Shown here: positions 4,372 to 21,440 of the stretch, piece after piece
Position numbering within the stretch: the stretch's first letter is position 1
How the letters are laid out: every line of letters starts with the position of its first letter
DNA from: Thermoanaerobaculia bacterium
GTDB lineage: Bacteria > Acidobacteriota > Thermoanaerobaculia > UBA5066
Assembly: GCA_035542215.1 (NCBI GenBank)
Contig: DATKLW010000033.1
Span: 15,651-79,650 of the forward strand
Direction of reading: 5' to 3'
DNA: 64,000 bases
Made by a program: the position numbers and the translations under genes
Notes under the pieces: generated by a model
The model's input: the letters and a program-made list of their open reading frames with translations, nothing else
The model's database searches: none
Told to the model about the DNA's origin: nothing

Positions 4372-6018
4372 TCAGCGTCCGAAAAGCCGCGTCCGAAGCG
4401 CTTCGAAAAGGCCGCATCGGCGGAGCACGATCTCGCTCGGGCCCGGAGGCGGCCGAACGAGGATCGTGCCGCCCTCCGTCGTCTCGACGCGGCCCCCGCG
4501 CCCGGCGCTGACGGCGAGGAAGGGGCTCGCGAACCAGTTGACGACGAGAACGGCGTCCGGATCCGAATCGACGGCGAGGCGGATCTCCGGCACGTCCTCG
4601 AGTCCGGAGAGCGCCGCACGGGGGCTCGCCTCCCGGATCACGCAGCCCGCCGGCTCGAAGAGCGGCCGCGGCTCGGGCGGGGGCGCGCCCCGCGGCCGGA
4701 ACGCGTCGCTGTGCCGCGTGGCGGAGAGGCGCGCCGGCGTGAGGCTCGCGGCAATCTCGTCCGCCGCGATGAGCCGGGGCGGCGGCGGCCGCCCGACGCC
4801 GTACCAGACCTGGAAGAGCACGGCGGCGAGCAGCGCGGCGTGAAGTCCGCGCCTCACGGCGGCGCTCGGCGAGCTCGCGGCGAGGAGATCGATCGAGAGG
4901 CACAGGAGGACGATCGAAACCGCCGTCGAAAACGTGAGCAGACGCCACGGAAACTGGACGAACTGCAAGGGTGGCGCGAGGCGGTAGAGCGGCGCCGAGA
5001 CCGGCGACTCGAGGACGGCGTAGAGAGCCGCCGCGCCGAGCGCGAGAAACCACGCGGGGCCCGTTTCGCGGAGGCGGCTCGTCGGGAGGCGGCGGCACAC
5101 GGCGAGCGCGGCCACCGCGGCGCAGCAGACGATCGCGAGGGAGTTGAAGCCGCGCCCGATCTCGACCGAATAGCCGGCCGTGCTCGACGTCCAGCCGCCG
5201 ACGCGGTCGTACAGCATGTCCGCGAACGGCACGAAGTTCCGGAAGACGGCGAACTGCCCCGACCGGAAGACGTCGAGATCCGCGTCCGCGCCGAAGACCC
5301 GGATCCCGGCGAGGAACGGCCCCGCGACGACGGCGACGACGAGCGCGGCCTGGCCGAGCGCGGGAAGCGCCCGCGCCCGCCCCTGGCGGAACGCGAGAGC
5401 GCCCGCGAAGGCGAGGAGGACGAACCCCGACGCGAAAAGAAAGATCACGGAGTGCGCGAAGAAGAGGAGGGCGAGAACGGCGCCGAGCGCCCAGCCGGCC
5501 CGCGAACGCCCCGCGACGACGCCGAGCGCGGCGTCGAAGAGCCACGGGACGAGCATGAACGCCGCGAACTCCGCGAACGCTCCCCGGACGACCCAGTCCG
5601 TGTAGGCGTAGTTGGAGAAGACGAAAAGGAGCGCGCCGCACGTCGCCGGGAACGAAGCGAGCCCCGCGGCGCGGAGGGTCCGGCGCATTCCGAGCGCGCC
5701 GGCGAAGAGAAGGAGCAGGATCGCGGCGCGGACGCCGGCGAGCGTCGAGCCCGTCGCGAGCGCGAGGCCGCCCGCGAGGGTATTGAAGAGCCGGTGGTAG
5801 AAGAACGGGAAGGGCGAGCCATGGCCGTTCTCGGCGAGGGGCGTCCAGAGCGGGAGGAGGCTCCCTTCCGCGAACGCGCGGCGGAAGATTTCGACCCGTT
5901 GAAAGCAGGCGACGCGGTCGTGGTTCTCCGGCCAGCCGGGAAGGACGAACACGGGGGCACAGGCCGCGACGCAAGCGAGGAAAAGCAGGACGAAAGGGCC
6001 CGCGCGGCGGGGAGACAT
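4372..6018 (-). CDS. Polytopic membrane protein, probable GT-C-type glycosyltransferase (PTPS-related/YfhO-like)
   Basis: 548 aa, more than 10 predicted TM helices. N-terminal region LLPLWTPLAENGHGSPFPFFYHRLF resembles PTPS-related membrane glycosyltransferase-like proteins. It is the first of three tandem paralogous membrane genes on the minus strand. Confidence 0.55.
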   Translation of the reverse strand: MSPRRAGPFVLLFLACVAACAPVFVLPGWPENHDRVACFQRVEIFRRAFAEGSLLPLWTPLAENGHGSPFPFFYHRLFNTLAGGLALATGSTLAGVRAAILLLLFAGALGMRRTLRAAGLASFPATCGALLFVFSNYAYTDWVVRGAFAEFAAFMLVPWLFDAALGVVAGRSRAGWALGAVLALLFFAHSVIFLFASGFVLLAFAGALAFRQGRARALPALGQAALVVAVVAGPFLAGIRVFGADADLDVFRSGQFAVFRNFVPFADMLYDRVGGWTSSTAGYSVEIGRGFNSLAIVCCAAVAALAVCRRLPTSRLRETGPAWFLALGAAALYAVLESPVSAPLYRLAPPLQFVQFPWRLLTFSTAVSIVLLCLSIDLLAASSPSAAVRRGLHAALLAAVLFQVWYGVGRPPPPRLIAADEIAASLTPARLSATRHSDAFRPRGAPPPEPRPLFEPAGCVIREASPRAALSGLEDVPEIRLAVDSDPDAVLVVNWFASPFLAVSAGRGGRVETTEGGTILVRPPPGPSEIVLRRCGLFEALRTRLFGR

Positions 6019-6027
6019 CGACGAAGT

Positions 6028-7764
6028 CTAGCGAGACGGCCCGCAGCGGGCCGCGAAGACCGAACCCTCGGGCGTGCCCGGAAAGCCCAGCCTCACGGTA
6101 TACAGGCCCCGCGGCGGACGCGACGTGACGATCCAGTCGAACTCGGCGCACGCGCCCGTGTCCGGCGCCCGCATGGGAAGAAGCTCGAGCGGGCTGAGCG
6201 GCCGGGTTGCATCTACCGGAAACGCGACGAGGAAGGGAGAATCCTCCCGCGCGAGGATGCCCGGGTCGACCGCCACGCGCTGCCGCCCCACCGAGGACGC
6301 GAACGCGCCTGCGGCGGCGGCCCGCTGGCCGAAGCGCGGGGCCGTCGGGCTCAAGAGGCCCCAGCGCAGGAAACGCGTGGTGTCGCAGAGACCAGACGCG
6401 ACCACGACGACGAGAGGCAGGGCCGCTCGCGCGAGAGACGGCGGGGCGCGGAGCGCGAGAGCGTCGAGGCCGGCCGCCGCGAGAGGCAGGGCGAGCGCGA
6501 GCGCGAGGCCCGCGCGGTACCCGTTCGGAGCCTCCAGCGGAGACGACAGGACGCCTCCGGCGAGCGACCCCGCGAGGACCGCGAGGAGGAGGCCCCTCTC
6601 CCGGCTCCAGGCGGCGGCGAGACCGGCAGGAAGAAGCGCCGCGACGAACGCGTTGAACGGCGGCGTGTCCCCCTCGCCGTGGCGCGTGTTCCGGTCCCAG
6701 GCGAAGGAGAGCAGGCCGACGTAGTCCGCGGCGTTCTCCGCGACGCTCCATGCGACCTCCGACGGGCTGCCCCGGAGCCGGATGGCGGCGGCCCGTCCGC
6801 CGAGAGCGTCCGGCCGCCGGACGTACACGAGCGCGAGGAAGAGAGCCGGCAGCGCGAGCCCCGCGGCGAAGGCGCCGAACGCGCGGGCTTGGCGGCGGAG
6901 AAGGAAGGACCCGAACAGGAAGACGGCGAGCGCGCCCACCGCGGGGATCGAACCGACGTACGTGTGGAGCGAGAGGCCCGCGAGGAGTCCGCAGGCGAGA
7001 AGAGGCCCGGCTCTCCCGGAGTCCCGCGCGGCCGCGGCGCGCTCGAGAGAGAGCACGACGAGAAGGACCATCATCTGCTGGTCCCAGCCCCAGCGCGCCT
7101 GGACGAGAAGCGGAAACGCGGTCGCCGCGAAGACACCGGCGATGAGCGCGGCGCGCGGCGGGGCGAGGCGGCGAGTCAGGAGAAAGAGGGCGAGCGGGAT
7201 GAGCGCGCCGGGCAGGGCGGACAGCAGGGCGTAGGCGAGCTGGCGGTCGGGGGCCAGCACGAGAAGCACCCTCGCGACGTCCAGCATCCCGCCGAAGAGG
7301 AGGATGTTCGAGGGGCCGAACGGGGCGGGGGCGAGCGACACGGCCTCCCACGGCCACAGGAAGCGACCGGCGGAGGCCGCATCGTGGAGGGCGTGCACGC
7401 CGTCGGTCCAGGGGGCTCCGGGCAATTCGCGCCAGAACGCGCCGCGGAGGGCGACGGACAGAGCGACCACGAGAATTGCGGGGCCGAAGACACCGGCGCG
7501 GGGAGAGTCGCCGGCTGCGGGCCGCCGGAGCGCGAGGACCGGGGCGGCGAACGCGAGGGCGAGGAAGAGACCGAAGGCGACGAGCGCGAGCAACGTCGCC
7601 GCGGTGACCGGCCAGACGGAGTCGACCGGGAGGAAGTAGCCCGGCGGGTAGCCGAGAAGCCGCTGCCGGAGCCAGGCGGCGCCGGCGGCCGCCGCCGCCG
7701 CGAGCCCCAGGGCCTCGCCATGCCCCCGCGGTCTCACGGACTGCCACGAGAAGCGGCCGGCCAT
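6028..7764 (-). CDS. GT-C family membrane glycosyltransferase (ArnT/PMT_2-like, GT39/GT83)
   Basis: 578 aa, multi-TM N-terminal half with periplasmic loop motifs typical of ArnT/dolichyl-phosphate-mannose mannosyltransferase-like enzymes. Confidence 0.6.
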   Translation of the reverse strand: MAGRFSWQSVRPRGHGEALGLAAAAAAGAAWLRQRLLGYPPGYFLPVDSVWPVTAATLLALVAFGLFLALAFAAPVLALRRPAAGDSPRAGVFGPAILVVALSVALRGAFWRELPGAPWTDGVHALHDAASAGRFLWPWEAVSLAPAPFGPSNILLFGGMLDVARVLLVLAPDRQLAYALLSALPGALIPLALFLLTRRLAPPRAALIAGVFAATAFPLLVQARWGWDQQMMVLLVVLSLERAAAARDSGRAGPLLACGLLAGLSLHTYVGSIPAVGALAVFLFGSFLLRRQARAFGAFAAGLALPALFLALVYVRRPDALGGRAAAIRLRGSPSEVAWSVAENAADYVGLLSFAWDRNTRHGEGDTPPFNAFVAALLPAGLAAAWSRERGLLLAVLAGSLAGGVLSSPLEAPNGYRAGLALALALPLAAAGLDALALRAPPSLARAALPLVVVVASGLCDTTRFLRWGLLSPTAPRFGQRAAAAGAFASSVGRQRVAVDPGILAREDSPFLVAFPVDATRPLSPLELLPMRAPDTGACAEFDWIVTSRPPRGLYTVRLGFPGTPEGSVFAARCGPSR

Positions 7765-7770
7765 TGGAGC

Positions 7771-9369
7771 TCAGAGCGACATCGGCGACCAGAGTCGCCA
7801 CATGTTGCTGCGCAGGGTCGGGGGGCGGGCCGGCCCTGTACGCCGGTACTCGGTGAACGCGTCGGTTCGCGCGACGCGGACGAGACCGGCGCGCGCTTCC
7901 CAGCCGTCAAAGTCCGGGTCGCGCTCGACGAGGACGACGTCGGGCGCGAACCCCTCGAGCGGGATCTCGGCGTCGGAGGGCGCCCCCTCTCTCTTCGTCA
8001 CGAGATAGACTTTTTCGATCCGGCTCCAGCAGAAGTACTTCACGACGTCGCGCCCGTTGCGCGCGACGAGGAGGACGCGCGCGCCGCCGGCGGTCAGGTC
8101 GCGGGTGCGCTCGGCCATCGCGGTCACCGACTTGTGGAAATAATGGGCGGCGACGTCCGACCGGCCGAACGTCACGACCCAAGCCCGCGCCTGAAGCGCG
8201 AGCGAGAGGGCGAAGAGCGCCGCGAGCGGGATCGCGAGCCGGGGCGCGCGAGAGAGAAGCGCGTCGCAGCCGAGCGCGGTGAAGACGAGCCAGGCGGGGA
8301 GGAGGATCAGGAGGCGCGTGAGGCTCGGACCGTAGAGGCCGAGGAGCACGCAGCCCGAGAGCCACGCGACGAAGAGGAACGAGAGCGCCTGGGGCTCTTT
8401 CCCGCGCCGCCACGCGAAAAGGCCGAGGAGCGCGAACGGCCCGGCGATGAGGTCGAACGGATCGAGGCCGCTCGCCGTCAGGGCGACGCCCGTCACGTCG
8501 AAGACGTGACTGGATCCCAGCCACACGCGGTAGCGGTCCGGATAGGCGAACGGCATGAGAAACGTCGCGAGGACGTTTCCGATCTTCTCGAACGGCGTGC
8601 CGCGCGAAACGTAGTAGCCCCGGTCGAGGAGGGCGCCGGGCGCGCGGAGGAGAAGGAGAAGGTTCGGGATCGAGAAGAGCGCGAAGCCGAGGACGACGCG
8701 CCGCGCCTCGCGGCGCAGGGCGGGGCGCGTCCCGACCGTGCGGCGCCAGCGCAGCGCGAAGTGGAGCGCCCAGGCGATCGGAAGGAGGCGGCACGCCGAG
8801 TACGCGTAAACGCCCAGCGCGAAGAGCGCGCCGGCGGCGAACGGACGGTCGGCGACGCCGGTCTCTCTCCGGTCGTCGAGCAGGAAGCATGCGCCGAGAA
8901 GGACGAGCGGAGCGGCGATCGCCCTCAGGCCGACCTCGCCGGAGTGGAAGAGCCAGAGAGAGGACGCGGGAACGAGGAGCGCGATCCCGACGGGGAGCGT
9001 CGGCCGGATACGCCGGAGGAGGGCCGCGACGAGAACGAGCGTGCCGGCGGCCGCGAGGATGCTCGGGACGAGGAAGGACGTCCGCGTCGGGCCGAAGACC
9101 GCGACCGCGGCGCCGGTCAGGTAGAGCCAGAGCGTCTCGGCGGACGGGCCGATCGAGACCGTCAGGACCTCGAAGCGGCGCAGGAGAACGAGCCGGAGCC
9201 CGCGCAGCGCCTCGATGACCGGATCCGCCGCGACGCCGGGAGGGACGCGCCCGGCCGCGAGAGCGAGGAGACCGAGGTAAGCCGCGGCGCCGGATCCGAT
9301 GAGGGCGGCGCTCCGGGCGGAGGTCTTCCGCCCCGGAGCGAGGGGCGCACTCTCCTTCTGCGTCCGCAT
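7771..9369 (-). CDS. GT-C family membrane glycosyltransferase (ArnT/PMT_2-like)
   Basis: 532 aa, multi-TM; shares architecture with the upstream paralogue. C-terminal soluble domain. Confidence 0.6.
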   Translation of the reverse strand: MRTQKESAPLAPGRKTSARSAALIGSGAAAYLGLLALAAGRVPPGVAADPVIEALRGLRLVLLRRFEVLTVSIGPSAETLWLYLTGAAVAVFGPTRTSFLVPSILAAAGTLVLVAALLRRIRPTLPVGIALLVPASSLWLFHSGEVGLRAIAAPLVLLGACFLLDDRRETGVADRPFAAGALFALGVYAYSACRLLPIAWALHFALRWRRTVGTRPALRREARRVVLGFALFSIPNLLLLLRAPGALLDRGYYVSRGTPFEKIGNVLATFLMPFAYPDRYRVWLGSSHVFDVTGVALTASGLDPFDLIAGPFALLGLFAWRRGKEPQALSFLFVAWLSGCVLLGLYGPSLTRLLILLPAWLVFTALGCDALLSRAPRLAIPLAALFALSLALQARAWVVTFGRSDVAAHYFHKSVTAMAERTRDLTAGGARVLLVARNGRDVVKYFCWSRIEKVYLVTKREGAPSDAEIPLEGFAPDVVLVERDPDFDGWEARAGLVRVARTDAFTEYRRTGPARPPTLRSNMWRLWSPMSL

Positions 9370-9536
9370 TTGCCGATTCTAGAAGCGGTCGCGCCGCGAG
9401 CCTCCCGGGTGGTCCGGGCGCGCGAGAAGCGCGTCTTTTGGGCCTCCGGACGCATTCCTCCAGTCTTCGGACGCAATCGGCATGGTTCAAATGAGGGATG
9501 GACGAGCCCCGAGGCAGGCCCGGACACTGACCGTGG

Positions 9537-11174
9537 ATGACTCTCTCGCGCATCCCCTTCCATCGGCGCCTCGGCTTCAAGATCACGGCAACGGCGGCCG
9601 CGGCGATCCTCGTCCCCGTCGCGTTCGTCGCGGCGCTGACGATCCGCGCCCAGCACGAGGAGCTCGTCGCGCGGGCGCAGGGGAGCGCTTCGATCCTCTC
9701 CGAAACCGTGCGCAGCGCGACGCACGACTTCATGCTTCGGAACCAGCGCGAAGATGCGTACCGGATCGTCGAGATCGTCGGTCACGAGAGCCTCCGCAAG
9801 GACAGCTCGATCGAGAGCGTCCGGATCTTCAACAAGCGCGGCTCGACCGTGTACTCGACGGACCGGTCCGAGATCGGGCGGATCGCGGACAAGAGCGCGG
9901 GCGCGTGCGCGCCGTGTCACGGGGGGCCGGGAGCGCCCGTCACGAACCCGGATCCCGCGACGCGCAGCCGCATCACCACGGTCGGGGACCACCGCGTCCT
10001 GTCGTTCGTGACGCCGATCTACAACGAGAAGGACTGCGCGGTGGCGGGCTGCCACGCCTCCCCAAAGGACCAGCGCGTCCTCGGCCTCCTCGACGTCGCG
10101 CTCTCCCTGCGCGACGTCGACGACCGGCGCTCGGCCGCGACGTGGCGCATCGTCGGGTTGTCGCTCGTCGCGCTCGTGCTGCTCACGGCGCTCGTCTCGG
10201 CCATCGTCCGCCTTCTCGTCGTGCGGCCCGTTTCGGACATGCTCGCGGCGACGCGGGACCTCGCGGAAGGCCACACGGCCGCGCCGCTCGCGATCCGCAC
10301 CGAGGACGAGCTCGGACGGCTGGGGCATTCGTTCAACGAGATGAACGCGTCGCTCCGGCGGGCACGCGCCGAGCTGGAAGAGGCGGCGGAGAACCTCGAG
10401 CAACAGGTCGAGGACCGCACGGCCGCCCTTCAGCATGCTCAGGAGGCGCTCGTGCAATCCGAGAAGCTCGCCTCGCTCGGCACGCTGTCGGCGTCGATCG
10501 CGCACGAGATCAACAACCCGCTCGCGGGGGTCCTGACCTTCGCGCGCCTCATGTCGCGCACGCTCGAGGCCGGCGAGGTGAACGAGGACGCCCGCGCCGC
10601 GTGCCTGAAGAACCTCGGCCTCATCCAGCGCGAGACCGAGCGCTGCACGCGGATCGTGCGCAGCCTCCTCGACTTCGCGCGAGCCCGGCCGATCGAGCTC
10701 CTCTCCGTCGACGCCGTCGCGGCTCTCGAGGAGGCGCTCTCTCTCACGCAGCACAAGCTGCAGCTTCAGCAGGTCGTCCTGACCCGGGCGTTCGACGGGC
10801 CGGCCGTCGTGCGCGGCGACTTCGGCCAGCTGCGGCAGGTCTTCGTGAACCTGATCCTGAACGCGTGCGACGCGATGCCGGAGGGCGGGACGCTTGCCGT
10901 GACCTCGAAGAGGGTGGAGGACGGCCAGGCCGTGGAAATCGCGATCGCCGACACGGGCGCGGGCATCGCGCCGGAGCACCTGTCGAGGATCTTCGACCCG
11001 TTCTTCACGACGAAACCGATGGGGACGGGTCTCGGCCTCTCGGTCGTCTACGGCGTCGTGGAGAAGCACGGCGGGTCGATGAAGGTGCAGAGCCGTCGCG
11101 GCGAAGGCACGACGATGACGGTGCGGTTGCCGCTTGCCGGGAAGGCGGCGGCGCCGGCGGGCGCCGCCGTGTGA
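9537..11174 (+). CDS. Sensor histidine kinase (TM1, periplasmic domain with c-type haem motifs, TM2, HAMP, HisKA, HATPase_c)
   Basis: 545 aa. Two TM helices flank a ~155-aa periplasmic domain containing CAPCH (CXXCH) and CAVAGCH (CX4CH). Then HAMP, an H-box SIAHEINNPL and G1/G2 boxes. Confidence 0.85.
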   Translation: MTLSRIPFHRRLGFKITATAAAAILVPVAFVAALTIRAQHEELVARAQGSASILSETVRSATHDFMLRNQREDAYRIVEIVGHESLRKDSSIESVRIFNKRGSTVYSTDRSEIGRIADKSAGACAPCHGGPGAPVTNPDPATRSRITTVGDHRVLSFVTPIYNEKDCAVAGCHASPKDQRVLGLLDVALSLRDVDDRRSAATWRIVGLSLVALVLLTALVSAIVRLLVVRPVSDMLAATRDLAEGHTAAPLAIRTEDELGRLGHSFNEMNASLRRARAELEEAAENLEQQVEDRTAALQHAQEALVQSEKLASLGTLSASIAHEINNPLAGVLTFARLMSRTLEAGEVNEDARAACLKNLGLIQRETERCTRIVRSLLDFARARPIELLSVDAVAALEEALSLTQHKLQLQQVVLTRAFDGPAVVRGDFGQLRQVFVNLILNACDAMPEGGTLAVTSKRVEDGQAVEIAIADTGAGIAPEHLSRIFDPFFTTKPMGTGLGLSVVYGVVEKHGGSMKVQSRRGEGTTMTVRLPLAGKAAAPAGAAV

Positions 11175-11722
11175 GCGAGGTCCTTCTCCTGTGGATCGGG
11201 CGGACGGACTCCGCGCCGGAGATCCTCGAAGGCGTGCGGCGGAGCGTCGCGCGCGAGTTCGACCTCGCGGCCCGCGTCCGGCTCGCCCAGGAGAGGCCCG
11301 TCGCCGCGTTCGACGCGCGGCGCGGCCAGCACTCCTCCACGCGGATCCTCGCCTGGCTGCAGGACCGGCACGACGGGGCGCACCGCATCCTGGGCGTCAC
11401 GGACGCGGACCTCTTCATTCCGGTTCTGACGTTCGTCTTCGGCGAGGCACAGCTCAACGGCCGCGCGGCCGTGGTCTCGACGGCCCGCCTCGGCGACACG
11501 CCCCTGATCCCCGGAGAGGCGGCGCGGATCGCGCTGCGCCTCCAGAAGGAAGCCGTGCACGAGCTCGGTCACACGTTCGGGCTCCTGCACTGCCCCGATT
11601 CGCGCTGTGCGATGGCGCGCTCGCCGAGCCTGCGCCACGTCGACGCGAAGTCCCCCGCCCTTTGCCGCGCCTGCCGCGCCCGCAGCCGCGAACTCTCGGA
11701 AAACGGAGATCCCCATGAGTAA
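11171..11722 (+). CDS. Archaemetzincin-like zinc metalloprotease (peptidase M54 family)
   Basis: GTG start overlaps the kinase stop (GTGTGA). The motif HELGHTFGLLHCPDSRCAMA...CRAC equals HEXXHXXGXXHCX4CXM-X17-CXXC, diagnostic of archaemetzincins. The 3' end overlaps the response-regulator start by 8 nt. Confidence 0.75.
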   Translation: MSEVLLLWIGRTDSAPEILEGVRRSVAREFDLAARVRLAQERPVAAFDARRGQHSSTRILAWLQDRHDGAHRILGVTDADLFIPVLTFVFGEAQLNGRAAVVSTARLGDTPLIPGEAARIALRLQKEAVHELGHTFGLLHCPDSRCAMARSPSLRHVDAKSPALCRACRARSRELSENGDPHE

Positions 11723-13109
11723 GAAAAGCACGCGAATCCTGATCGTCGACGACGAGGAGATCATCCGGGAGTCCCTCTCGGGCTGGCTCGGCAAGGACGG
11801 CTACACGATCGGGACGGCGCCGGACGGCCTTTCCGCGCTCCGGATGATGGAAGAGGGCTCGTGGTCGATCCTCCTCGCGGACCTCAAGATGCCCGGCATC
11901 GACGGGCTCGAGCTCCTCCGGCGCGTCAAGGCGAAGTGGCCGGACACCTCGGTCCTCATCATGACGGCCTTCGCCACGGTCGACACGGCCGTGAACGCGA
12001 TGAAGTCCGGCGCGTTCGACTACGTCGTCAAGCCCTTCGACCCGGAAGAGGTCAGCCTCGTCGTCGAGAAGATCGTCGCGCAGCAGGCCCTCGTCCGCGA
12101 GAACGTGATCCTCCGGAAGGCGCTCAAGAAGGAGTACGTTTTCCACGACTTCGTCACGAAGAGTCCGGCCCTCCTCGCGACGCTCGAGCTCGCGAAGACG
12201 GCCGCCCACAGCCCGTCGACGATCCTCGTCCTTGGGGAGAGCGGCACGGGCAAGGAGGTCCTCGCGCGGGCGATCCACGCCGAGAGTCCGCGCGGCGGCA
12301 AGCCGTTCGTCGCGATGTCGTGCGCGGCGCTCACGGAGACGCTCCTCGAGTCCGAGCTCTTCGGCTACGAGAAGGGAGCCTTCACGGGCGCGAACGGCCG
12401 GCGGGAAGGGAAATTCGAAGCCGCGAGCGGAGGGACGCTGTTCCTGGACGAGATCGGCGACATCAGCGCGAAGCTCCAGCTCGACCTCCTGAGGGTCCTG
12501 GAGGAGCGCCGCGTCACGCGCGTGGGCGGCACGGAGTCGCTGCCCGTCGACGTGCGGATCATCGCGGCGACGAACCGGGACCTGAGACGCGCGGTGGAGG
12601 AAGAGCGTTTCCGGCAGGACCTCTATTACCGGCTGAACGTCATCACGATCACGCTCCTCCCGCTGCGCGAGCGCAAGGAGGACATCCCGCTTCTCGTCGA
12701 GCGCCTGCTCGAGCAGCTCGGCTCCGAGCTCAAGCGCCCCGTCGAAGGCGTCTCGCCCGAAGCGATGGCGATCCTCCTCGCGCACGCGTGGCCCGGCAAC
12801 GTCCGCGAGCTGCGCAATGTCCTCGAGCGTGCGATCGTCGTTTCGGACGCGCCGATCCTCGAGGCCCGGCACCTCGGCCTGAACCTCCAGGAGGGCGTGG
12901 GAGCGAGGCCGATGCCGGAGCATCCGGCGTCCCTCGAGGAGATCGAGCGCCAGTACATCGGGAGCGTCCTGAAACTGAGCGGCGGCAACGTCACGCAGGC
13001 GGCCCGCATCCTCGACATCGACCGGGTGACCCTCTACGCCAAAATTCGCAAGTACGGGCTGAAACGCGCAGAGGGCGGGGAGTTCGAACCCTCAACGCCG
13101 AGCCGATGA
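11715..13109 (+). CDS. Sigma54-dependent response regulator (NtrC family: REC, AAA+ sigma54 activator, HTH)
   Basis: MSKKSTRILIVDDEE...LLADLKMPG receiver; GESGTGKE Walker A; GAFTGA motif; C-terminal Fis-type HTH. Start ATG at 11715 with a GGAGA RBS. Confidence 0.9.
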   Translation: MSKKSTRILIVDDEEIIRESLSGWLGKDGYTIGTAPDGLSALRMMEEGSWSILLADLKMPGIDGLELLRRVKAKWPDTSVLIMTAFATVDTAVNAMKSGAFDYVVKPFDPEEVSLVVEKIVAQQALVRENVILRKALKKEYVFHDFVTKSPALLATLELAKTAAHSPSTILVLGESGTGKEVLARAIHAESPRGGKPFVAMSCAALTETLLESELFGYEKGAFTGANGRREGKFEAASGGTLFLDEIGDISAKLQLDLLRVLEERRVTRVGGTESLPVDVRIIAATNRDLRRAVEEERFRQDLYYRLNVITITLLPLRERKEDIPLLVERLLEQLGSELKRPVEGVSPEAMAILLAHAWPGNVRELRNVLERAIVVSDAPILEARHLGLNLQEGVGARPMPEHPASLEEIERQYIGSVLKLSGGNVTQAARILDIDRVTLYAKIRKYGLKRAEGGEFEPSTPSR

Positions 13110-13137: not shown

Positions 13138-13170
13138 ACGCGCGGACCACCGCGCGTTTTCGCTTTCTGG
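13138..13170 (+). terminator. Rho-independent terminator downstream of response regulator
   Basis: Hairpin AACGCGCGG-ACCA-CCGCGCGTT followed by TTTCGCTTTC. Confidence 0.5.
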
Positions 13171-13225: not shown

Positions 13226-13242
13226 GTGGCCTGGTCCTTGCG
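13226..13242 (+). promoter_or_regulatory. Sigma54 (-24/-12) promoter
   Basis: TGGCCTGGTCCTTGC: GG and GC separated by exactly 10 nt (TGGC-N7-TTGC), matching consensus TGGCAC-N5-TTGC. The predicted TSS is ~3-5 nt before ATG 13257. It lies directly downstream of the sigma54 activator gene. Confidence 0.6.
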
Positions 13243-13256
13243 CTACCAGAAGTGCC

Positions 13257-13508
13257 ATGTTGACCGAAACCACGACCACCTGCCCATGGCTGAAACAAGT
13301 GGTGATGCTCTACTGCGACGCCTGCCCCACCAAGAAGATGGTGCCGCGTGACCAGCTCGTGTCCCAGGGCCCTTGCCTGGCCGGCTCCTTCAAGGAGTGC
13401 GCGATGTACCGCGAGATGGCCCAGAGGCTCGGGGCCGGCGCCGACGACAGGGTTGTGAATACGGAGGCGAGCCGCGAGGCCGCTTCCGGGAGGGAGGTCC
13501 CGTCATGA
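13257..13508 (+). CDS. Small Cys-rich hypothetical protein (83 aa)
   Basis: ORF has 5 Cys (CPW...YCDAC...GPC...EC). It is the first ORF after the sigma54 promoter and would be near-leaderless. No homology recognised. Confidence 0.35.
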   Translation: MLTETTTTCPWLKQVVMLYCDACPTKKMVPRDQLVSQGPCLAGSFKECAMYREMAQRLGAGADDRVVNTEASREAASGREVPS

Positions 13509-13588
13509 TCGCCACCATCCCGCTCGCCCTTCTCGCCGTTCTGACGCTCCTTGCGCTGGCCCATCAGAGCCGGGTCCGTCCGTCCTGA
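13505..13588 (+). CDS. 27-aa hydrophobic single-TM micropeptide
   Basis: Strong SD GGGAGGGAGG 8 nt upstream of ATG; MIATIPLALLAVLTLLALAHQSRVRPS. Sits immediately 5' of the Fe-S subunit gene. Confidence 0.4.
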   Translation: MIATIPLALLAVLTLLALAHQSRVRPS

Positions 13589-13601
13589 GGAGAAGAACGC
13601 A

Positions 13602-14510
13602 ATGACTCTCAACCGCCGCAACCTGTTCAGGATCGCCGGCGCTGCGGGCGCGGCCACGGTCGCGGGCCGTGCGCTTTCGTCGGCGATGACACCGGGCGCC
13701 CCAAAGACCACCGCCAATGCGGTCCTGGTGGACACGACGCGCTGCGTCGGCTGTCGCGCCTGCGAGGCCGCCTGCTCCGAGGCAAACCAGCTCGCCGAGC
13801 CCGAGAAGCCCGGCGACGCCGCCGTGTTCGCGTCGCGCCGCCGGACGGGCCCCACGAGCTTCACGGTCGTGAACAAGTCGACCGAGAAGAGCCCGAATGG
13901 AGAGGACCGCTACGCGAAGATGCAGTGCATGCACTGCGTGTCGCCCGCGTGCGCGTCCGGCTGCGTCGTCGGAGCGCTCGAGAAGACGCCGGCGGGCCCG
14001 GTCGTCTACCACGCGGGCCAGTGCATCGGCTGCCGGTACTGCATGATCGCGTGCCCGTTCTCGGTCCCGAAATACGAATACGCGAAGGCCGCCCCGCTCG
14101 TGAAGAAGTGCACCTTCTGCGCCGAGCGCCAGGGCCAGGGCCTTCCGCCCGCGTGCACGGAGGCCTGCCCTTCGGGCGCGCTCCTGTTCGGCAAGCGGGC
14201 CGACCTCCTCGAGGAAGCGAGGACCCGCATCTACCAGAACCCGACGCGGTACACGCACGAGATCTACGGCGAGGACGAAGCCGGGGGAACGAGCTGGCTC
14301 TACCTCTCGGACGTCCCGTTCACGAGCCTCGCCCTCCCCGGCGAAATCGAGAAGAGGTCGTACCCGGAGCTCGCGGAAGGCGCGCTCTCGGCGGTCCCCC
14401 TCGTCGCGACCCTGTGGCCGCCCCTCCTCATGGGCCTCTACACCTTCAGCAAGCGGCGCCACGACGTCGCGGAAGAAGGAAACGGGCGCAAAGGAGACGG
14501 TCATGAGTAA
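13602..14510 (+). CDS. Tat-exported 4Fe-4S ferredoxin-type electron-transfer subunit (HybA/NrfC/DsrO-like) with C-terminal TM anchor
   Basis: Twin-arginine signal MTLNRRNLFRIAGAAGAATVAG. Four Cys clusters CVGCRACEAAC, CMHCVSPACASGC, CIGCRYCMIACP and CTFCAERQ...CTEACP. C-terminal hydrophobic helix; RBS GAGGAGAAG. Confidence 0.85.
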   Translation: MTLNRRNLFRIAGAAGAATVAGRALSSAMTPGAPKTTANAVLVDTTRCVGCRACEAACSEANQLAEPEKPGDAAVFASRRRTGPTSFTVVNKSTEKSPNGEDRYAKMQCMHCVSPACASGCVVGALEKTPAGPVVYHAGQCIGCRYCMIACPFSVPKYEYAKAAPLVKKCTFCAERQGQGLPPACTEACPSGALLFGKRADLLEEARTRIYQNPTRYTHEIYGEDEAGGTSWLYLSDVPFTSLALPGEIEKRSYPELAEGALSAVPLVATLWPPLLMGLYTFSKRRHDVAEEGNGRKGDGHE

Positions 14511-15747
14511 CGTGATGAGCGACGGCCTGAACCGCCCGGTCCCCTTCCCCGCGTTCGTTCTGGACAAGATCTGCCTCGGAATGCCCGCGAAGACCTACGC
14601 GAAGAGCCTCCTGACGAAGACGAACGCGATCTACGCCGCCATCCTCGCGATCGGCCTCCCCACTCTCGCCTACCGCTACTGGAAGGGAATGGGCGCCGTG
14701 AGCAACCTCTCCCAGACGAACCCGTGGGGCATCTGGGTCGGCATCAACATCATCTGCGGCATCGCGCTCGCGGCCGGCGGCTACACGGTGGCCGCGACCG
14801 TCTACGTCTTCGGCCTCGAGCAGTACCGGCCGATCCTGAGGCCCGCGATCCTGACGGGGTTCCTCGGCTACGTCTGCGCGATCAGCGGCCTCATCGTCGA
14901 GCTCGGCCAGCCGTGGCGGCTTCCCTACCAGCTCTTCCTGACGCCGGGCACGACCGCCGTCATGTTCGAAGTCGGCATGTGCGCGTTCGCCTACCTGATC
15001 GTCCTCGGTCTCGAGATGCTTCCCGCGGGACTCGAGTGGCTCGGACTCGCCCGCGCCCGCCGCATCATGGGAACGCTCACGATCGGGATCGTCGTCCTCG
15101 GCATCACGCTCTCGACGCTCCACCAGGCCTCGCTCGGCGCCTTCTTCCTCATGGTGCCGGGCAAGCTCCACCCGCTCTGGTACTCGCCGTATCTCCACGT
15201 CTTCTTCTTCATCTCCTCGATCTCCGCGGGAATCGGGATGATCATCTTCGAGAGCACGGTCTCGCGCCGCGCGTTCCGCGACGAGCTCGACCCCGAGGCG
15301 CCCGTCGACCTCGACGCGCTGCAGCTCGGCCTCGCCAAGGGCGGCGCGGTCGTCCTCTTCGCGACCTTCTTCATCCGCCTCCAGGGCCTCGTCGTCTCCG
15401 GGCGGTGGGACCTCCTGTTCACGGGCTGGGGCGCCTGGTTCGCGCTCGAGCTCGTCGGCTTCATCCTCTTGCCGTCGCTCCTCTTCGCGTTCGCCGTCCG
15501 CACGCAGAGCGTCACGCTCACGCGCGCGGCCGCCGTCATGGCGGTTCTCGGCGTCGTCCTGAACCGCATCAACGTGTCCCTCATCGCCTACAACTGGAAC
15601 GTCCCCGCCTCGGACCGGTACGTCCCGTCGATGGGCGAGATCGTCCTCACGATCCTGCTCCTCACGTGCGGCGTTCTCGCCTTCCGCTGGATCGTCAACC
15701 GCATGCCCGTCCTTCGCGAGCATCCGGATTGGCGCGGCAGCCACTGA
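14503..15747 (+). CDS. NrfD/PsrC/HybB/DsrP-family polytopic membrane quinone-interacting subunit
   Basis: 414 aa, ~10 TM helices, NrfD-family sequence character. Start overlaps the Fe-S gene stop (ATGAGTAA). Confidence 0.85.
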   Translation: MSNVMSDGLNRPVPFPAFVLDKICLGMPAKTYAKSLLTKTNAIYAAILAIGLPTLAYRYWKGMGAVSNLSQTNPWGIWVGINIICGIALAAGGYTVAATVYVFGLEQYRPILRPAILTGFLGYVCAISGLIVELGQPWRLPYQLFLTPGTTAVMFEVGMCAFAYLIVLGLEMLPAGLEWLGLARARRIMGTLTIGIVVLGITLSTLHQASLGAFFLMVPGKLHPLWYSPYLHVFFFISSISAGIGMIIFESTVSRRAFRDELDPEAPVDLDALQLGLAKGGAVVLFATFFIRLQGLVVSGRWDLLFTGWGAWFALELVGFILLPSLLFAFAVRTQSVTLTRAAAVMAVLGVVLNRINVSLIAYNWNVPASDRYVPSMGEIVLTILLLTCGVLAFRWIVNRMPVLREHPDWRGSH

Positions 15748-15763
15748 GAAGAAAGAGAAGAAC

Positions 15764-16429
15764 ATGCACGCGAACGACCTCCTCAGCCCGCACGCAACCA
15801 AGGCCATCGAGTACGTGCTCGCGGTCTCGTATCTCCTGCTCTTCATCCCCTTCTGGCGCTTCGTGAACGGCGCCACCGCCGCGGAGTCCCTCGCGTTCTC
15901 GTGGTTCCAGGTCCCGGCGAACGTCCACCTGCACCGCGGCCACTCCTGGGCGAAGACGTTCGGGGGCGCGGTGGCGGTCGGTCTCGACGACTTCGCGCAC
16001 AAGATGATCGGCCCGCTCGATTCCGTCCAGTTCCCCGCGGTCGGCTCCGCCCTCCGGCAGGGGCAGAAGGCCTTCTCGGTCGTCGCGGACGGCAAGTCCT
16101 TCGACGTCCTCTCACCGGTCGACGGCAACGTCGTCGCGCTGAACGAATTCGTCCGCGCCCATCCGTCCGACGCGGTCCGCGACCCTTACGGCACGGGCTG
16201 GCTTCTCAAGGTCGAGCCCCGCTGGCTCACGGCAAACCTCAAGAACCTCGTCTCCGGCGACGGGGCCCGCCGCTTCCTCGACGCGGCCGCCCAGGTGCTC
16301 GCCGGCCGCATGAGCCCCGAGCTCGGCATCGTCCTCCAGGATGGCGGCACGCCGGTTCACGGAATCGCCCGCGAGATCGACCCCGCGAACTGGGACTCTC
16401 TGGTCCGGACGTCTCTCAAGGGCGAGTGA
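15764..16429 (+). CDS. Membrane-anchored glycine-cleavage H-protein-like (lipoyl-carrier fold) protein, lipoyl-Lys position conserved
   Basis: N-terminal TM helix. Soluble domain aligns with E. coli GcvH: HSW (HEW), AVGLDDFA (VGITEHA), ADGKSFDVLSPVDGNVVALN ([21 protein letters not shown]; K aligned) and DPYGTGWLLKVEP (EPYAGGWIFKIK). Confidence 0.7.
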   Translation: MHANDLLSPHATKAIEYVLAVSYLLLFIPFWRFVNGATAAESLAFSWFQVPANVHLHRGHSWAKTFGGAVAVGLDDFAHKMIGPLDSVQFPAVGSALRQGQKAFSVVADGKSFDVLSPVDGNVVALNEFVRAHPSDAVRDPYGTGWLLKVEPRWLTANLKNLVSGDGARRFLDAAAQVLAGRMSPELGIVLQDGGTPVHGIAREIDPANWDSLVRTSLKGE

Positions 16430-16439
16430 GGAGTCCGCG

Positions 16440-16790
16440 ATGAACACACGCCTCCGCTTCCTCGCGGCGACTTTCCTCCTCTCCCTTTCCGCGACGCTGC
16501 TCGCGGGGGCGCTCCCGAACCTCCCGAAGGACATCGCGTTCCCCCAGGGCGACGGCAGCCCGGGAGTCGTGATCTTCCGGCACGAAGATCACATCGATGC
16601 CTCGCAGCCGGACTGCACGATCTGCCACCCGAAACTCTTCTCCATCGTCAAACGCACCGCCTCTTCGGCCGCCCCCGCCGCGATCCGCCACGCCGAGATG
16701 GAAAAGGGCAAGAGCTGTGGCTCCTGCCACGACGGCAAGACCGCTCACGGGCTCTGGGACGACTGCGGAACGTGCCACAAGGCAAGGTGA
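16440..16790 (+). CDS. Trihaem c-type cytochrome, cytochrome c7 (PpcA)-like
   Basis: Signal peptide plus three CXXCH (CTICH, CGSCH, CGTCH). FRHEDHIDASQPDCTICH parallels PpcA FPHKAHQKAVPDCKKCH. Confidence 0.8.
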   Translation: MNTRLRFLAATFLLSLSATLLAGALPNLPKDIAFPQGDGSPGVVIFRHEDHIDASQPDCTICHPKLFSIVKRTASSAAPAAIRHAEMEKGKSCGSCHDGKTAHGLWDDCGTCHKAR

Positions 16791-16798
16791 GGTGACCC

Positions 16799-17497
16799 AT
16801 GACGCCTCTCGAATTCCTCCAGCTCGCCGGCATCTTCCTCGCGGGCCTCGTCGTACGGCTCCTCGCGTTCCTGCTCGTGCTCGCGGTCTGCACGCTGCCG
16901 ATCATCGCCGTCTGGGCGTTGTGGACCGCGTGGCAGAAGCTCCGTGACCGGCGCATCGGCCTCGTCGACCTCGCCGGGCTCGAGCTCGCCGAGGCGCACC
17001 ATTACGCGCCGGGCCACACGTGGCTCGCGCGCAAGGGCCGCGGCACCGTCCGCGTCGGACTCGACGAGATCGCGGGGCGGCTCCTCCACGCGCCCACGAG
17101 CGTCTCGCTCCCGCGGCCGGGAACCGTCCTCGCCGCCGGCCTCCCCGCCGCGACCGTGAACTGCGGCGGCCGCTCGGCCTCGATCACGGCTCCGGTGTCG
17201 GGCACCGTCGTCGCGATCAACCAGGCGGTCCAGCGCGATCCCTCGATCCTCGAGGACTCGCGCTACCGGAACGGCTGGCTCTTCTCGATGAAGCCCGCGA
17301 CGGCCTCGTTCCTCACGCTTCCGACGGGACCCGCCGCGCGCGCGTGGTTCCGGGACGAGACGGCGCGCTTCTCGCACGCGCTCGAGACCGAGCTCGGCCT
17401 CCTCGCTGCCGACGGCGGAGAGCTCGTCGTCGAGGCGCCCGCTCTCCTCTCCGAGGAGAAGTGGCAGCACCTCGTCGGGGAGTTCCTGAAGGGCTGA
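16799..17497 (+). CDS. Membrane-anchored GcvH-like protein (two N-terminal TM helices), lipoyl-Lys replaced by Gly
   Basis: GHTWLARKGRGTVRVGLDEIAG and DSRYRNGWLFSMKP match the GcvH fold. The position of the lipoyl-Lys aligns to NCGGRSASITAPVSG, with no Lys. Confidence 0.65.
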   Translation: MTPLEFLQLAGIFLAGLVVRLLAFLLVLAVCTLPIIAVWALWTAWQKLRDRRIGLVDLAGLELAEAHHYAPGHTWLARKGRGTVRVGLDEIAGRLLHAPTSVSLPRPGTVLAAGLPAATVNCGGRSASITAPVSGTVVAINQAVQRDPSILEDSRYRNGWLFSMKPATASFLTLPTGPAARAWFRDETARFSHALETELGLLAADGGELVVEAPALLSEEKWQHLVGEFLKG

Positions 17498-17520: not shown

Positions 17521-17553
17521 GCGCGGGGCGGTTCGTCCGCCCCGCGTTTTCGT
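17521..17553. terminator. Bidirectional Rho-independent terminator between convergent genes
   Basis: GCGGGGCGG-TTCG-TCCGCCCCGC hairpin followed by GTTTTCG; A-rich on the opposite strand. Confidence 0.55.
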
Positions 17554-19553: not shown

Positions 19554-21440
19554 ATGGACGGATCGAACACCGGCGGCCCAACCGACGTCCCGACGCCGCG
19601 CGCCGGCTACCAGGGCGAGCCGGGCTCGTTTTCCGCGCGCGCGGCCGCGCGCGCCGGCCGGCCGCTCGCGTACGCGACGTTCGACCGCCTCCTCCGCGCG
19701 CTCCTCGCGGGCGACGTGGACGTCGCGGTCCTCCCCGCCGCGACGCACGGCGCGGGGCCCGTCGTCGAGCCGCTCGAAGCGCTCGCCCGCGCCCTCGAGG
19801 CCGGCGGAGTTCCGCTCGAAGTGCGCGACGAGATCGCGATCCCCGTCCGCCTCGTCCTCGCGGCGCCCTCCGGCGTCGCCGAGGAGAGCGTGAGGGAAAT
19901 CCACTCGCAGCCGCCGGTGCTCCGTCAATGCGCGCGCCTTCTCGCGCGGCGCGACGCCGTGCCCGTCGAGACGCACGACACGGCATTCGCCGCCCGGCGC
20001 GTCGCCGAGCTCGGCGGCGCGCGTGCGGCCGTCTGTTCGGAGGAGGCCGCGCTGGAGGCCGGCCTCGTCGTTCTCGAAGAGGACGTGTCCGACGTGAAAC
20101 CGAACGCGACGCGCTTCTGGACCGTCGCGCGCCGCTCGGACGCCGAACCGACCGTCCGGGCGCTCTTCTTCTCGGGGGCACGTCTCGCCGCGGCCCTCCA
20201 CGACGCCGGCGCGGAGATCCTCATGCTCGCCGGGCGGCCTGGCGCGGCCGTCGGCGGGTTCGCAACCGTCGCCGCCGCCTCGCTCGCGAAGGCCGCGGGA
20301 CTCGTGGCGACGTCGGGCGAGACGCTCGTCTGGCTCGGCCCGGCGCCCGACCACGTTCCTCCGCCGCGCCTCAGGGACGCCCCGAGGGCGACGGAAGTCC
20401 GCGCGGCCACGGTCGTCACGGCCGGCGCGTTCGCGGTCGGGGGCGGGAAGCGCGCGGTCATCGCGGGCCCGTGCGCGGTCGAATCGCCCGAGCAGGTGAT
20501 GCGCCTTGCGAAAGCGGTCGCGCGCGCCGGCGCCACCGCGCTCCGGGGAGGAGTCTTCAAGCCGCGGACGTCGCCGTCCGCGTTCCAGGGGCACGGCCTC
20601 GAGGCGCTCCGCTGGCTGAAGGACGCGGGCGACGCGGTGGGCCTGCCGATCGTCACGGAGGTCATGGCCCCCGCGCAGGTGGAGCCGGTTGCGCGCCTCG
20701 CGGACGTTCTCCAGATCGGCGCGCGCAACTGCCAGAACTACGACCTCCTGAAGGAGGCCGGCGCCGCCGGTCGCCCCGTGATGCTCAAGCGCGGCTTCGG
20801 GACGACAGTCGAGGAATGGCTCAGCGCGGCCGAGTACATTCTCGCCGCGGGCTGCGAGGGCGTCCTCCTCTGCGAGCGCGGCATCCGGACGTTCGAGCGT
20901 TCGACGCGCGGCACGCTCGACCTCGGCGGCCTTCTCGCGGCGCGGTCCCTCACGCACCTGCCGCTCCTCGCGGACCCGTCGCACGCCGCGGGCCGCAAGG
21001 AGCTCGTCCCCGGCCTCGCGCGCGCCGCGTGGGGCGCGGGCGTCGACGGACTCATGATCGAGGTCCACGACGCGCCCGAGTCCGCGCTGTGCGACGGGCC
21101 CCAGGCGCTGCTGCCCGAAGACCTCGAAATGCTCCTCGACGAGTTCGGGCTCCTGCCGGGGCGCACGGGCTCCGTCGAACGCGTGCGGCGCGCGATCGAC
21201 GCCGTGGACTCTTCGATCGCGGCCCTCGCGGCCCGAAGGCTCGAGCTCTGCCGCCGCGTCGCGGAGGTCAAGAAGGCCACGGGCCGCCCCGTCCGGGACG
21301 AGGCCCGGGAAGCCACCGTGCGCGCGCGCTTCGCCGAGAGCCTCGGGAAGGACGCGACGAAAGCGTCCGGCCTCGCGGACGCGCTCATCGCGCTCGGACT
21401 CGAGGCCGAGGGCTGGGAGGGGGACGCTACTCGCCGATGA
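19554..21440 (+). CDS. Trifunctional fusion: prephenate dehydratase (N) - DAHP synthase type I-beta (middle) - AroQ chorismate mutase (C)
   Basis: N-terminal [11 protein letters not shown] and TRF motif (PDT). Middle [15 protein letters not shown]...[11 protein letters not shown]...[14 protein letters not shown] (KDSA-like DAHPS). C-terminal [30 protein letters not shown] (AroQ CM). RBS GAAGGAGG. Confidence 0.85.

Follow-up and report, generated by a model that had tools for sequence, protein, structure and literature searches.

A membrane histidine kinase with two c-type haem motifs in a periplasmic sCache domain, linked by synteny and a sigma54 promoter to an electron-transfer operon

We analyzed a 64,000-nucleotide stretch of a metagenome contig from a Thermoanaerobaculia bacterium of the phylum Acidobacteriota (assembly GCA_035542215.1, contig DATKLW010000033.1, positions 15,651 to 79,650; hereafter the window), in which an open reading frame (ORF) of 545 residues on the forward strand, at 9537..11174, encodes a sensor histidine kinase. 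Orthologues of 87-90% identity are present in metagenome-assembled genomes (MAGs) of Thermoanaerobaculia and other Acidobacteriota. Judged from its sequence and that of its homologues, the outward-facing domain of the kinase very probably carries two covalently attached haems. We consider it probable that the protein is a membrane kinase that uses two c-type haems in an sCache domain to drive a neighboring operon, through a sigma54-dependent response regulator, according to the periplasmic redox state. Within this proposal, we infer that haem is attached, which residues are its axial ligands, what kind of signal is sensed and which protein receives the phosphate; the observations behind each are set out below, and the coordinates of all features are collected in Table 1.

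The assignment of the protein as a HisKA-type kinase was straightforward. Pfam searches identified a HAMP domain at residues 226-273 (E=2.6e-10), a HisKA domain at residues 314-383 (E=5.2e-13) and a HATPase_c domain at residues 428-534 (E=3.1e-27), and the kinase boxes are all intact: the H-box AHEINNP at residue 322 (H323), the N box NLILNA at 438, the G1 box DTGAGI at 472, the F box FDPFF at 486 and the G2 box GTGLGL at 496. Two hydrophobic segments, at residues ~16-36 and ~203-229, are separated by ~165 residues, and the N-terminus is basic (R5, R10, R11 and K15). Because of these flanking segments and the basic N-terminus, residues ~37-203 should face the periplasm, as far as the sequence can tell. 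An original prediction, made from the letters of this DNA before any database search, had described the gene as a histidine kinase with its sensor between two transmembrane (TM) helices, and the domain matches, kinase boxes and hydrophobic segments all agree with that description.

The same prediction had pointed to a CXXCH and a CX4CH motif in the sensor domain, which we located as CAPCH (motif 1, residues 124-128) and CAVAGCH (motif 2, residues 167-173). The whole kinase contains cysteines at positions 124, 127, 167, 172, 356, 370 and 444, and exactly four of them are periplasmic, each inside a haem-type motif. Conservation of the motifs in homologues had been proposed as a check, and both proved to be near-invariant. 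In an alignment of 112 homologues, with 27-88% identity to the window kinase, C124, C127, H128, C167 and G183 are invariant, and C172, H173 and M66 are each kept in 111 sequences. An exhaustive HMMER search with kinase residues 1-230 against representatives of 50% identity clusters returned 1,059 representatives at E<=1e-3 and 505 at E<=1e-10. Within a family set of 155 proteins, mostly cluster representatives, 137 have a CXXCH followed by a CX4CH, and the spacing between the motifs is 42-44 residues in 132 of the 143 proteins that have both; exceptions in spacing or motif are mostly truncated or frameshifted fragments. At the second site, the family has CX4CH in 137 proteins, CXXCH in 3, CX3CH in 2 and CX5CH in 1. 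For comparisons at the DNA level, genome loci were located with a 6-sequence family alignment, which gave 566 confirmed matches. Synteny counts refer to the best 79 of these 566 and are therefore skewed towards orthologues. With three further loci that carry the window kinase gene itself, both haem motifs are encoded at all 82 loci compared.

To place the motifs in a fold, we built an AlphaFold2 model of the sensor on the 112-sequence alignment. The model is confident (predicted local distance difference test [pLDDT] 91.5; predicted template modelling score [pTM] 0.83) and shows a PAS-like/sCache fold between the two TM helices, with a long helix running on from TM1, a second helix, two strands, a short helix with the CAPCH motif, two more strands, a short helix with the CX4CH motif, and a last strand that continues into the TM2 helix. 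CAPCH lies in a modelled helix at residues 122-128 and CAVAGCH in one at residues 165-169, ahead of a strand at residues 181-190. Relative to the rest of the family alignment, the window clade has a 5-residue insertion, ESLRK, after sensor helix 2 (residues 84-88, window 9786..9800). When the model was compared with the Protein Data Bank (PDB) by Foldseek, the top matches were Cache domains of WalK, KinD, DctB and CitA, and GSU0935 (3b42) ranked sixth. Ligand-binding sCache sensors such as WalK, CitA and DcuS are the best structural matches (Foldseek E=1e-7 to 1e-2) and have the same placement between TM1 and TM2, but they lack haem motifs and share only ~14% sequence identity with the window sensor. 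In ordinary Cache sensors of this kind, the segment between strands 2 and 3 forms the ligand pocket.

Sequence profiles connect the family more specifically to the haem-containing sensor domains of two Geobacter sulfurreducens chemoreceptors, GSU0935 and GSU0582 (3B42 and 3B47; PF21563), with which a comparison had also been proposed. DcrA, the haem chemoreceptor of Desulfovibrio that had been named for the same comparison, did not turn up in any of the searches made, whether as sequence or as structure. A profile of 28 family sequences matched GSU0935 (3b42) with E=5.4e-7 and GSU0582 (3b47) with E=2.9e-4; the single window sequence reached only E=0.59, to 3b47. In the profile alignment, the family pattern PIYNE..C....CH falls on PFPNEQRCQSCH of GSU0935, the segment that holds Cys140, Cys143 and His144, so that the CX4CH motif aligns, with a 2-residue insertion, with the CQSCH haem site of GSU0935 and GSU0582. 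By this alignment, motif 2 is homologous to a haem-c site proven by crystallography and differs in having two more residues between its cysteines. The likeness extends to the PAS-like/sCache fold, to the position of the motif in a short helix before the last beta strand, to a methionine in the N-terminal helix at the position of Met60, and to the placement of the domain between two TM helices with a HAMP domain after it. The differences are that GSU0935 and GSU0582 have one CXXCH haem that feeds a chemoreceptor, whereas the window kinase has a CX4CH at the homologous site, an inserted CXXCH between strands 2 and 3, and a HisKA output. Motif 1 has no counterpart in GSU0582 or GSU0935 in the alignments. 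A weak similarity of the motif-1 region to NrfA haem sites (profile E about 1e-4) was judged to be driven by the motif itself and was set aside. Taken together, the conservation of the motifs, the sCache fold and the alignment of motif 2 to a proven haem-c site support the earlier suggestion of a dihaem domain, in which both haems would be attached through their motifs. The operon described below includes a gene for a trihaem cytochrome c7 (Pfam/NCBIfam), which indicates that the organism matures c-type cytochromes.

A second group of haem-binding Cache domains, sCache_heme or Tll0287-like (DUF3365, PF11845), is similar in that an insertion with a cytochrome-like CXXCH has been gained by a Cache fold ahead of its last strand. 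Kinases, chemoreceptors and HAMP-only receptors use these domains as their input, and the single-haem members of Pseudomonas behave as NO sensors (PMC12889525). They differ from the window sensor in having a single haem and a strict CXXCH, and neither the window sensor nor four homologues gave a PF11845 match, even at E values up to 10. We found no mention of two-haem or CX4CH members in the sCache_heme preprint (PMC12889525).

Candidates for the axial ligands also emerge from the alignments. M66 aligns with residue 26 of the 3b42 chain, which is Met60 when numbered from Cys140 and His144, making M66 a candidate for the distal ligand of haem 2, the haem of motif 2. In the GSU0935 crystal dimer one haem is coordinated by His144 and Met60 and the other by His144 and water, and in the GSU0582 crystal the ligands are His143 and water; in both proteins the haem is high spin when oxidized and low spin when reduced, and both bind CO and NO reversibly with displacement of the Met (PMC8396549). 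A further candidate follows the second motif, which reads CH-x-H, usually CHAHP, in 86% of 191 family sequences. Adjacent His residues of this type serve as haem ligands in cytochromes c3. By analogy, it is plausible that the family His175 is the sixth ligand of the neighboring haem.

The genetic context connects the kinase to a regulator and a promoter. The original prediction had placed the kinase directly upstream of a sigma54 activator; this needs correction, since a gene for a 183-residue archaemetzincin-like zinc peptidase (Peptidase_M54) intervenes, overlapping both the kinase stop and the regulator start. The regulator has a receiver domain (Response_reg, E=6.3e-30), an AAA+ sigma54 activator domain (Sigma54_activat, E=3.5e-70) with GAFTGA at residue 221, and a helix-turn-helix domain (HTH_8, E=9e-14). 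We examined synteny by tblastn of the window proteins against the 79 genome loci, using as denominators the loci with enough downstream sequence. The same strand carries the M54 gene 3′ of the kinase gene in 63 of 69 loci and the regulator gene in 60 of 62. It is uncommon for a two-component operon to include a cytoplasmic metalloprotease as a constant third gene.

Downstream of the regulator gene is a presumed target operon, and the two units are delimited by terminator-like hairpins. The first gene of this operon is a small Cys-rich ORF without a Pfam or NCBIfam match, followed by genes for HmcB-like and HmcC-like proteins, a first GcvH-like protein, the cytochrome c7 and a second GcvH-like protein. 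In other genomes these genes are likewise found downstream of the kinase on the same strand: the small ORF in 49 of 62 loci, the HmcB-like gene in 43 of 59, the HmcC-like gene in 40 of 54, the GcvH-like genes in 41 of 52 and 41 of 50, and the c7 gene in 36 of 52. Between the regulator gene and the operon, reading of the intergenic region revealed a sigma54 -24/-12 element, and a TGG-N9-TGC is present 21-46 nucleotides upstream of the small first ORF in 53 of the 56 loci having that ORF. A scan of the window with a strict sigma54 consensus (TGGYAYN6TGCW, 1 mismatch) missed this promoter and returned chance-level matches only. The block of kinase, M54 gene, regulator and operon is found in Acidobacteriota, Rokubacteria, Tectomicrobia and single MAGs labelled Deltaproteobacteria and Acidithiobacillales, and is rearranged in Ignavibacteria and Hydrogenedentota.

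Given a two-component operon, a sigma54-dependent regulator, a conserved promoter and synteny of the whole block, control of the operon by the kinase is the natural reading. The original prediction had proposed that the kinase controls a cytochrome/Fe-S (iron-sulfur) module, and on the strength of synteny across phyla and of the promoter at 53 of 56 loci we infer, with good support, that it controls the downstream Fe-S/NrfD/GcvH-like/cytochrome c7 operon. From its gene content, this operon looks like a quinone-linked periplasmic electron-transfer module.

Several features of the operon deserve description in their own right. The -12 element ends ~15 nucleotides before the ATG of the first gene (13227..13259), with a conserved GCCATG, and the operon mRNA would have little or no leader, an uncommon situation for sigma54 promoters. 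The 83-residue first ORF is present in 53 of the 79 loci with 32-85% identity. The 27-residue mini-ORF that precedes the HmcB-like gene is uncalled in the source contigs, yet 46 of 49 loci encode a similar single-TM peptide in this position. Both GcvH-like proteins have hydrophobic N-terminal segments, and their genes flank the c7 gene; by eye, the lipoyl-lysine is absent from the second protein (R/G there), and in the first the Lys is shifted by one residue. In the literature searched we found no description of GcvH-like proteins inside an HmcBC/NrfCD-type module, nor of a GcvH/NrfD/HmcC-type sigma54 module.

Sensors with two motifs have been listed before. GSU0599 and GSU0591 of G. sulfurreducens appear as signal transducers with two CX2-4CH motifs, the former annotated as a two-component protein and the latter as a cytochrome c family protein (PMC8396549), and Adeh_2011 and Adeh_3383 of Anaeromyxobacter dehalogenans also have two motifs (PMC3831638, citing Londer et al. 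2006). In the literature searched, we found no study of these four proteins that goes past the listing of motifs. With two CX2-4CH motifs in one periplasmic sensor domain, the window kinase belongs to this known, biochemically uncharacterized two-motif branch of the haem-c sCache/PAS sensors.

A Geobacter-type cbc5 locus (L083) allowed a closer comparison. In gene order, a 523-residue kinase is followed by a sigma54 regulator encoded on the other strand, a multihaem cytochrome, a cytochrome b (Ni_hydr_CYTB), a further cytochrome and a 273-residue family member (P0199). Over its full length the kinase of this locus shares 37% identity with the window kinase (E=3e-105), and its motifs, CVMCH and CSTGSCH, are separated by 43 residues; P0199, a sensor-only paralogue, has a HAMP-like segment and the motifs CIACH and CVNAACH. 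The published gene order is GSU0599, GSU0598 (bccR), cbcA, cbcB ... GSU0591 (bioRxiv 10.1101/2021.04.15.440034), and the L083 kinase matches GSU0599 by synteny. The window locus and this GSU0599/GSU0591-type locus are alike in having a CXXCH then a CX4CH, with a sigma54 regulator and quinone-linked cytochrome genes alongside. They differ in that the Geobacter-type locus has its regulator on the opposite strand, lacks an M54 gene, and has as its operon cbcBA (a dihaem cytochrome b and a multihaem cytochrome c) instead of the HmcBC-like/GcvH-like module. BccR (GSU0598) is a sigma54-dependent regulator that turns on cbcBA when the redox potential drops (bioRxiv 10.1101/2021.04.15.440034). Like BccR, the window regulator combines receiver, sigma54-activator and HTH domains and adjoins a quinone-linked cytochrome operon with a -24/-12 promoter, but the target operon differs, and the BccR paper links BccR to no kinase.

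Sensor-only proteins such as P0199 are common in the family. Many members are ~270 residues long and consist of the dihaem sensor and a short HAMP-like cytoplasmic tail (P0198, P0199, P0237 and others), and in Desulfuromonadaceae they are often annotated as 'cytochrome C'. In L083 the GSU0591-like sensor-only member (9001..9822 of that locus) stands at the end of the cbcA/cbcB-like operon. Such proteins resemble the output-less Cache_heme-HAMP receptors of a 2026 preprint (10.64898/2026.05.25.727664).

These observations suggest how the kinase might work. Haem 2 would be attached at C167 and C172, with H173 as proximal ligand, and, as the ancestral sensor haem, would be the switch element. Its reduction, or the binding of a ligand to it, would alter the coordination of the iron by Met66, by analogy with GSU0935. 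In the model, the helix that carries M66 continues into TM1 and the last strand into TM2 and HAMP, which would provide a direct mechanical path by which the coordination switch could be passed to the kinase core. Haem 1 (C124/C127/H128) would be an added haem in the segment that forms the ligand pocket of ordinary Cache domains, most likely an entry point for electrons or a tuning haem, in equilibrium with periplasmic cytochromes. The kinase would then phosphorylate the co-operonic sigma54 response regulator, which would activate the -24/-12 promoter of the small-ORF/HmcB-like/HmcC-like/GcvH-like/c7 operon, so that expression of the electron-transfer module would follow the periplasmic redox state. 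The balance tilts to redox sensing because the operon looks like an electron-transfer module in which Pfam and NCBIfam searches revealed no recognizable NO, CO or sulfide detoxifying enzyme, and the analogy with BccR, which switches on cbcBA as the potential falls, lends further support. We therefore favor the view that the kinase reports redox poise.

Some results weigh against this proposal. The surroundings of motif 1 are the part of the model with the lowest confidence (pLDDT 74-78), and the model is cofactor-free, the distal ligands being candidates read from the alignment. The window sensor scored 18.6 bits against PF21563 (Mcp40H-20_sensor; cutoff 27), with residues 148-191 aligned, and had no other Pfam or NCBIfam sensor match at threshold; three homologues score above the PF21563 cutoff (P0007, 35.8 bits; P0005, 29.0; P0012, 27.3). 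No biochemical evidence of haem was found in the literature searched for the window kinase or any other two-motif member. With only 42% identity between the window regulator and its BccR-like counterpart in L083, the Geobacter system serves as an analogy and is not an orthologue. Finally, the window clade has S, P or A in place of the family His175 (CHAH reads CHAS in the window). No consistent compensating His was found among the family sequences: H63 is enriched where His175 is absent (13 of 26 sequences, versus 28 of 165) in an inconsistent manner, and no pattern was seen for H152. One haem of this clade may therefore be coordinated differently, which keeps ligand sensing in play.

Ligand sensing, which the original prediction had also allowed for, is the most serious alternative, although we consider it unlikely. 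In this case the protein would have two c-haems as proposed, with the signal being a haem ligand (NO, CO, O2 or sulfide) that either takes the place of Met66 or occupies an open haem 1. The reversible binding of CO and NO by GSU0582 and GSU0935 with displacement of Met60 (PMC8396549) and the NO sensing by single-haem sCache_heme domains of Pseudomonas (PMC12889525) are precedents, and with His175 lost and no consistent substitute one haem could be five-coordinate. However, most family members retain His175 yet have the same gene context, the operon consists of generic quinone-linked parts (NrfD-like, 4Fe-4S and c7) with no detoxifier among them, and the closest analogue at the level of the system, BccR with cbcBA, answers to falling redox potential.

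The other explanations we considered dispense with haem or with signaling altogether. A set of four Cys and two His might in theory bind Zn, Cu or Fe or make two disulfides, giving a thiol- or metal-based periplasmic sensor, and haem here is predicted from sequence. We regard this as very improbable, given that a His directly after the second Cys, the signature of haem c attachment, is invariant in motif 1 and kept in 111 of 112 homologues in motif 2, that motif 2 aligns with a site holding haem in two crystal structures, and that the distal Met is likewise kept in all homologues but one; the CX2-5CH spacing at site 2 is tolerated by haem attachment but would be unexpected for a fixed metal site. 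Equally hard to sustain is the idea that the periplasmic domain is chiefly a membrane-anchored dihaem electron carrier for a neighboring complex, with a secondary or inactive kinase. It draws on the 'cytochrome C' annotation of homologues and on the GSU0591-like P0199, a sensor and HAMP-like segment only, inside a Geobacter-type cbc operon, but the catalytic boxes of the window kinase are all intact, 68 of 73 long family representatives match its kinase core by BLASTP with the other five carrying HisKA (Pfam), and a receiver-domain sigma54 regulator follows the kinase in 60 of 62 loci. That the two motifs arose by chance in an ordinary Cache sensor has practically no likelihood left: short motifs do arise by chance, and nothing further speaks for the idea, whereas conservation of these two across homologues as little as 27% identical, and at every one of the 82 loci, refutes it. 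We conclude that a dihaem sensor kinase, probably responding to periplasmic redox state, best accounts for the locus.

Table 1. Features of the kinase locus, with window coordinates (position 1 is the first nucleotide of the window).
Feature	Position	Strand	Description and basis
Sensor histidine kinase	9537..11174	+	Order TM1, periplasmic sensor, TM2, HAMP, HisKA, HATPase_c
Periplasmic sCache-type sensor domain	9645..10145	+	Residues ~37-203; AlphaFold2, Foldseek
Met66, candidate distal axial ligand of haem 2	9732..9734	+	Kept in 111/112 homologues; aligns with GSU0935 Met60
Haem-binding motif 1, CAPCH (C124, C127, H128)	9906..9920	+	CXXCH, residues 124-128; extra site, between strands 2 and 3
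Haem-binding motif 2, CAVAGCH (C167, C172, H173)	10035..10055	+	CX4CH form of the ancestral sensor haem site, residues 167-173
Ser175 at the family CHAH(P) His position	10059..10061	+	His in 86% of 191 family sequences
Archaemetzincin-like zinc peptidase gene, Peptidase_M54	11171..11722	+	183 residues; PF07998 E=1.8e-18; called in source contigs
Sigma54-dependent response regulator	11715..13109	+	Receiver, AAA+ sigma54 activator, HTH_8
Terminator-like hairpin and T-run after regulator gene	13140..13157	+	Kept in close orthologues (alignment)
Sigma54 -24/-12 promoter element	13227..13242	+	TGGCCTGGTCCTTGCG; GG-N10-GC geometry; found by reading the intergenic region
Presumed target operon	13257..17497	+	Pfam/NCBIfam, gene calls, synteny
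Cys-rich ORF, first operon gene	13257-13508	+	83 residues; Cys C9, C20, C23, C40, C48
Hydrophobic mini-ORF	13505-13588	+	27 residues, MIATIPLALLAVLTLLALAHQSRVRPS; overlaps stop of the 83-residue ORF (ATGA), precedes HmcB-like gene
HmcB/HybA-like 4Fe-4S protein	13602-14510	+	Exported by twin-arginine translocation (Tat); Pfam/NCBIfam
HmcC/NrfD-like membrane subunit	14503-15747	+	Pfam/NCBIfam
GcvH-like protein, first	15764-16429	+	Pfam/NCBIfam
Trihaem cytochrome c7	16440-16790	+	Pfam/NCBIfam
GcvH-like protein, second	16799-17497	+	Pfam/NCBIfam
Strong terminator-like hairpin closing the operon	17521..17547	+	11-pair stem, 10 G-C, then T-run

Outside this block, three consecutive genes for large membrane proteins (548, 578 and 532 residues) are divergent from the kinase gene on the reverse strand at 4372..9369 and show only partial synteny with the kinase cluster; the middle one has a weak match to the PMT_2 glycosyltransferase family, and the other two have no Pfam match. 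On the forward strand at 19554..21440, a 628-residue ORF fuses prephenate dehydratase, 3-deoxy-D-arabino-heptulosonate 7-phosphate (DAHP) synthase and chorismate mutase, three enzymes of aromatic amino-acid synthesis, according to gene call annotations.

Little is understood of how anaerobes gauge the redox potential of the periplasm and choose among alternative quinone oxidoreductases. For Geobacter the regulator BccR has been described, but the study of it (bioRxiv 10.1101/2021.04.15.440034) does not discuss its sensor. The present analysis describes a two-haem sensor kinase type that is widespread, occurring in Acidobacteriota (Thermoanaerobaculia and Vicinamibacterales), Rokubacteria, Tectomicrobia, Ignavibacteria and MAGs labelled Deltaproteobacteria, and that shared synteny and a conserved sigma54 promoter tie to a single, specific electron-transport operon. 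The observation of two motifs was already known for Geobacter and Anaeromyxobacter, and the discovery is to that extent incremental; what is new is the breadth of the family, its definition at the level of residues (CXXCH, ~43 residues, CX4CH, Met66 and usually His175), and the tight link, via the conserved sigma54 promoter, to a conserved operon of which we found no earlier description.

A much broader interpretation can be entertained, which we offer as speculation that is more likely to fail than to hold. The CXXCH/CX4CH/Met sCache domains might form a large, biochemically uncharacterized class of dihaem sensors of periplasmic redox state (505 or more clusters at 50% identity, E<=1e-10) that act across phyla as master switches for quinone-linked modules, with the two haems setting a potential window. 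Loss of the His of CHAH would have opened a haem of the window clade to exogenous ligands, and the archaemetzincin would be a new proteolytic layer of signaling. If this were true, cbcBA would be the module switched in Geobacter, with the HmcBC-like/GcvH-like/c7 module in that role in Acidobacteriota and others. At the scale of the single locus, the window offers a clean system of sensor, regulator, promoter and target, and the family alignment pinpoints the residues that can be mutated to study it.

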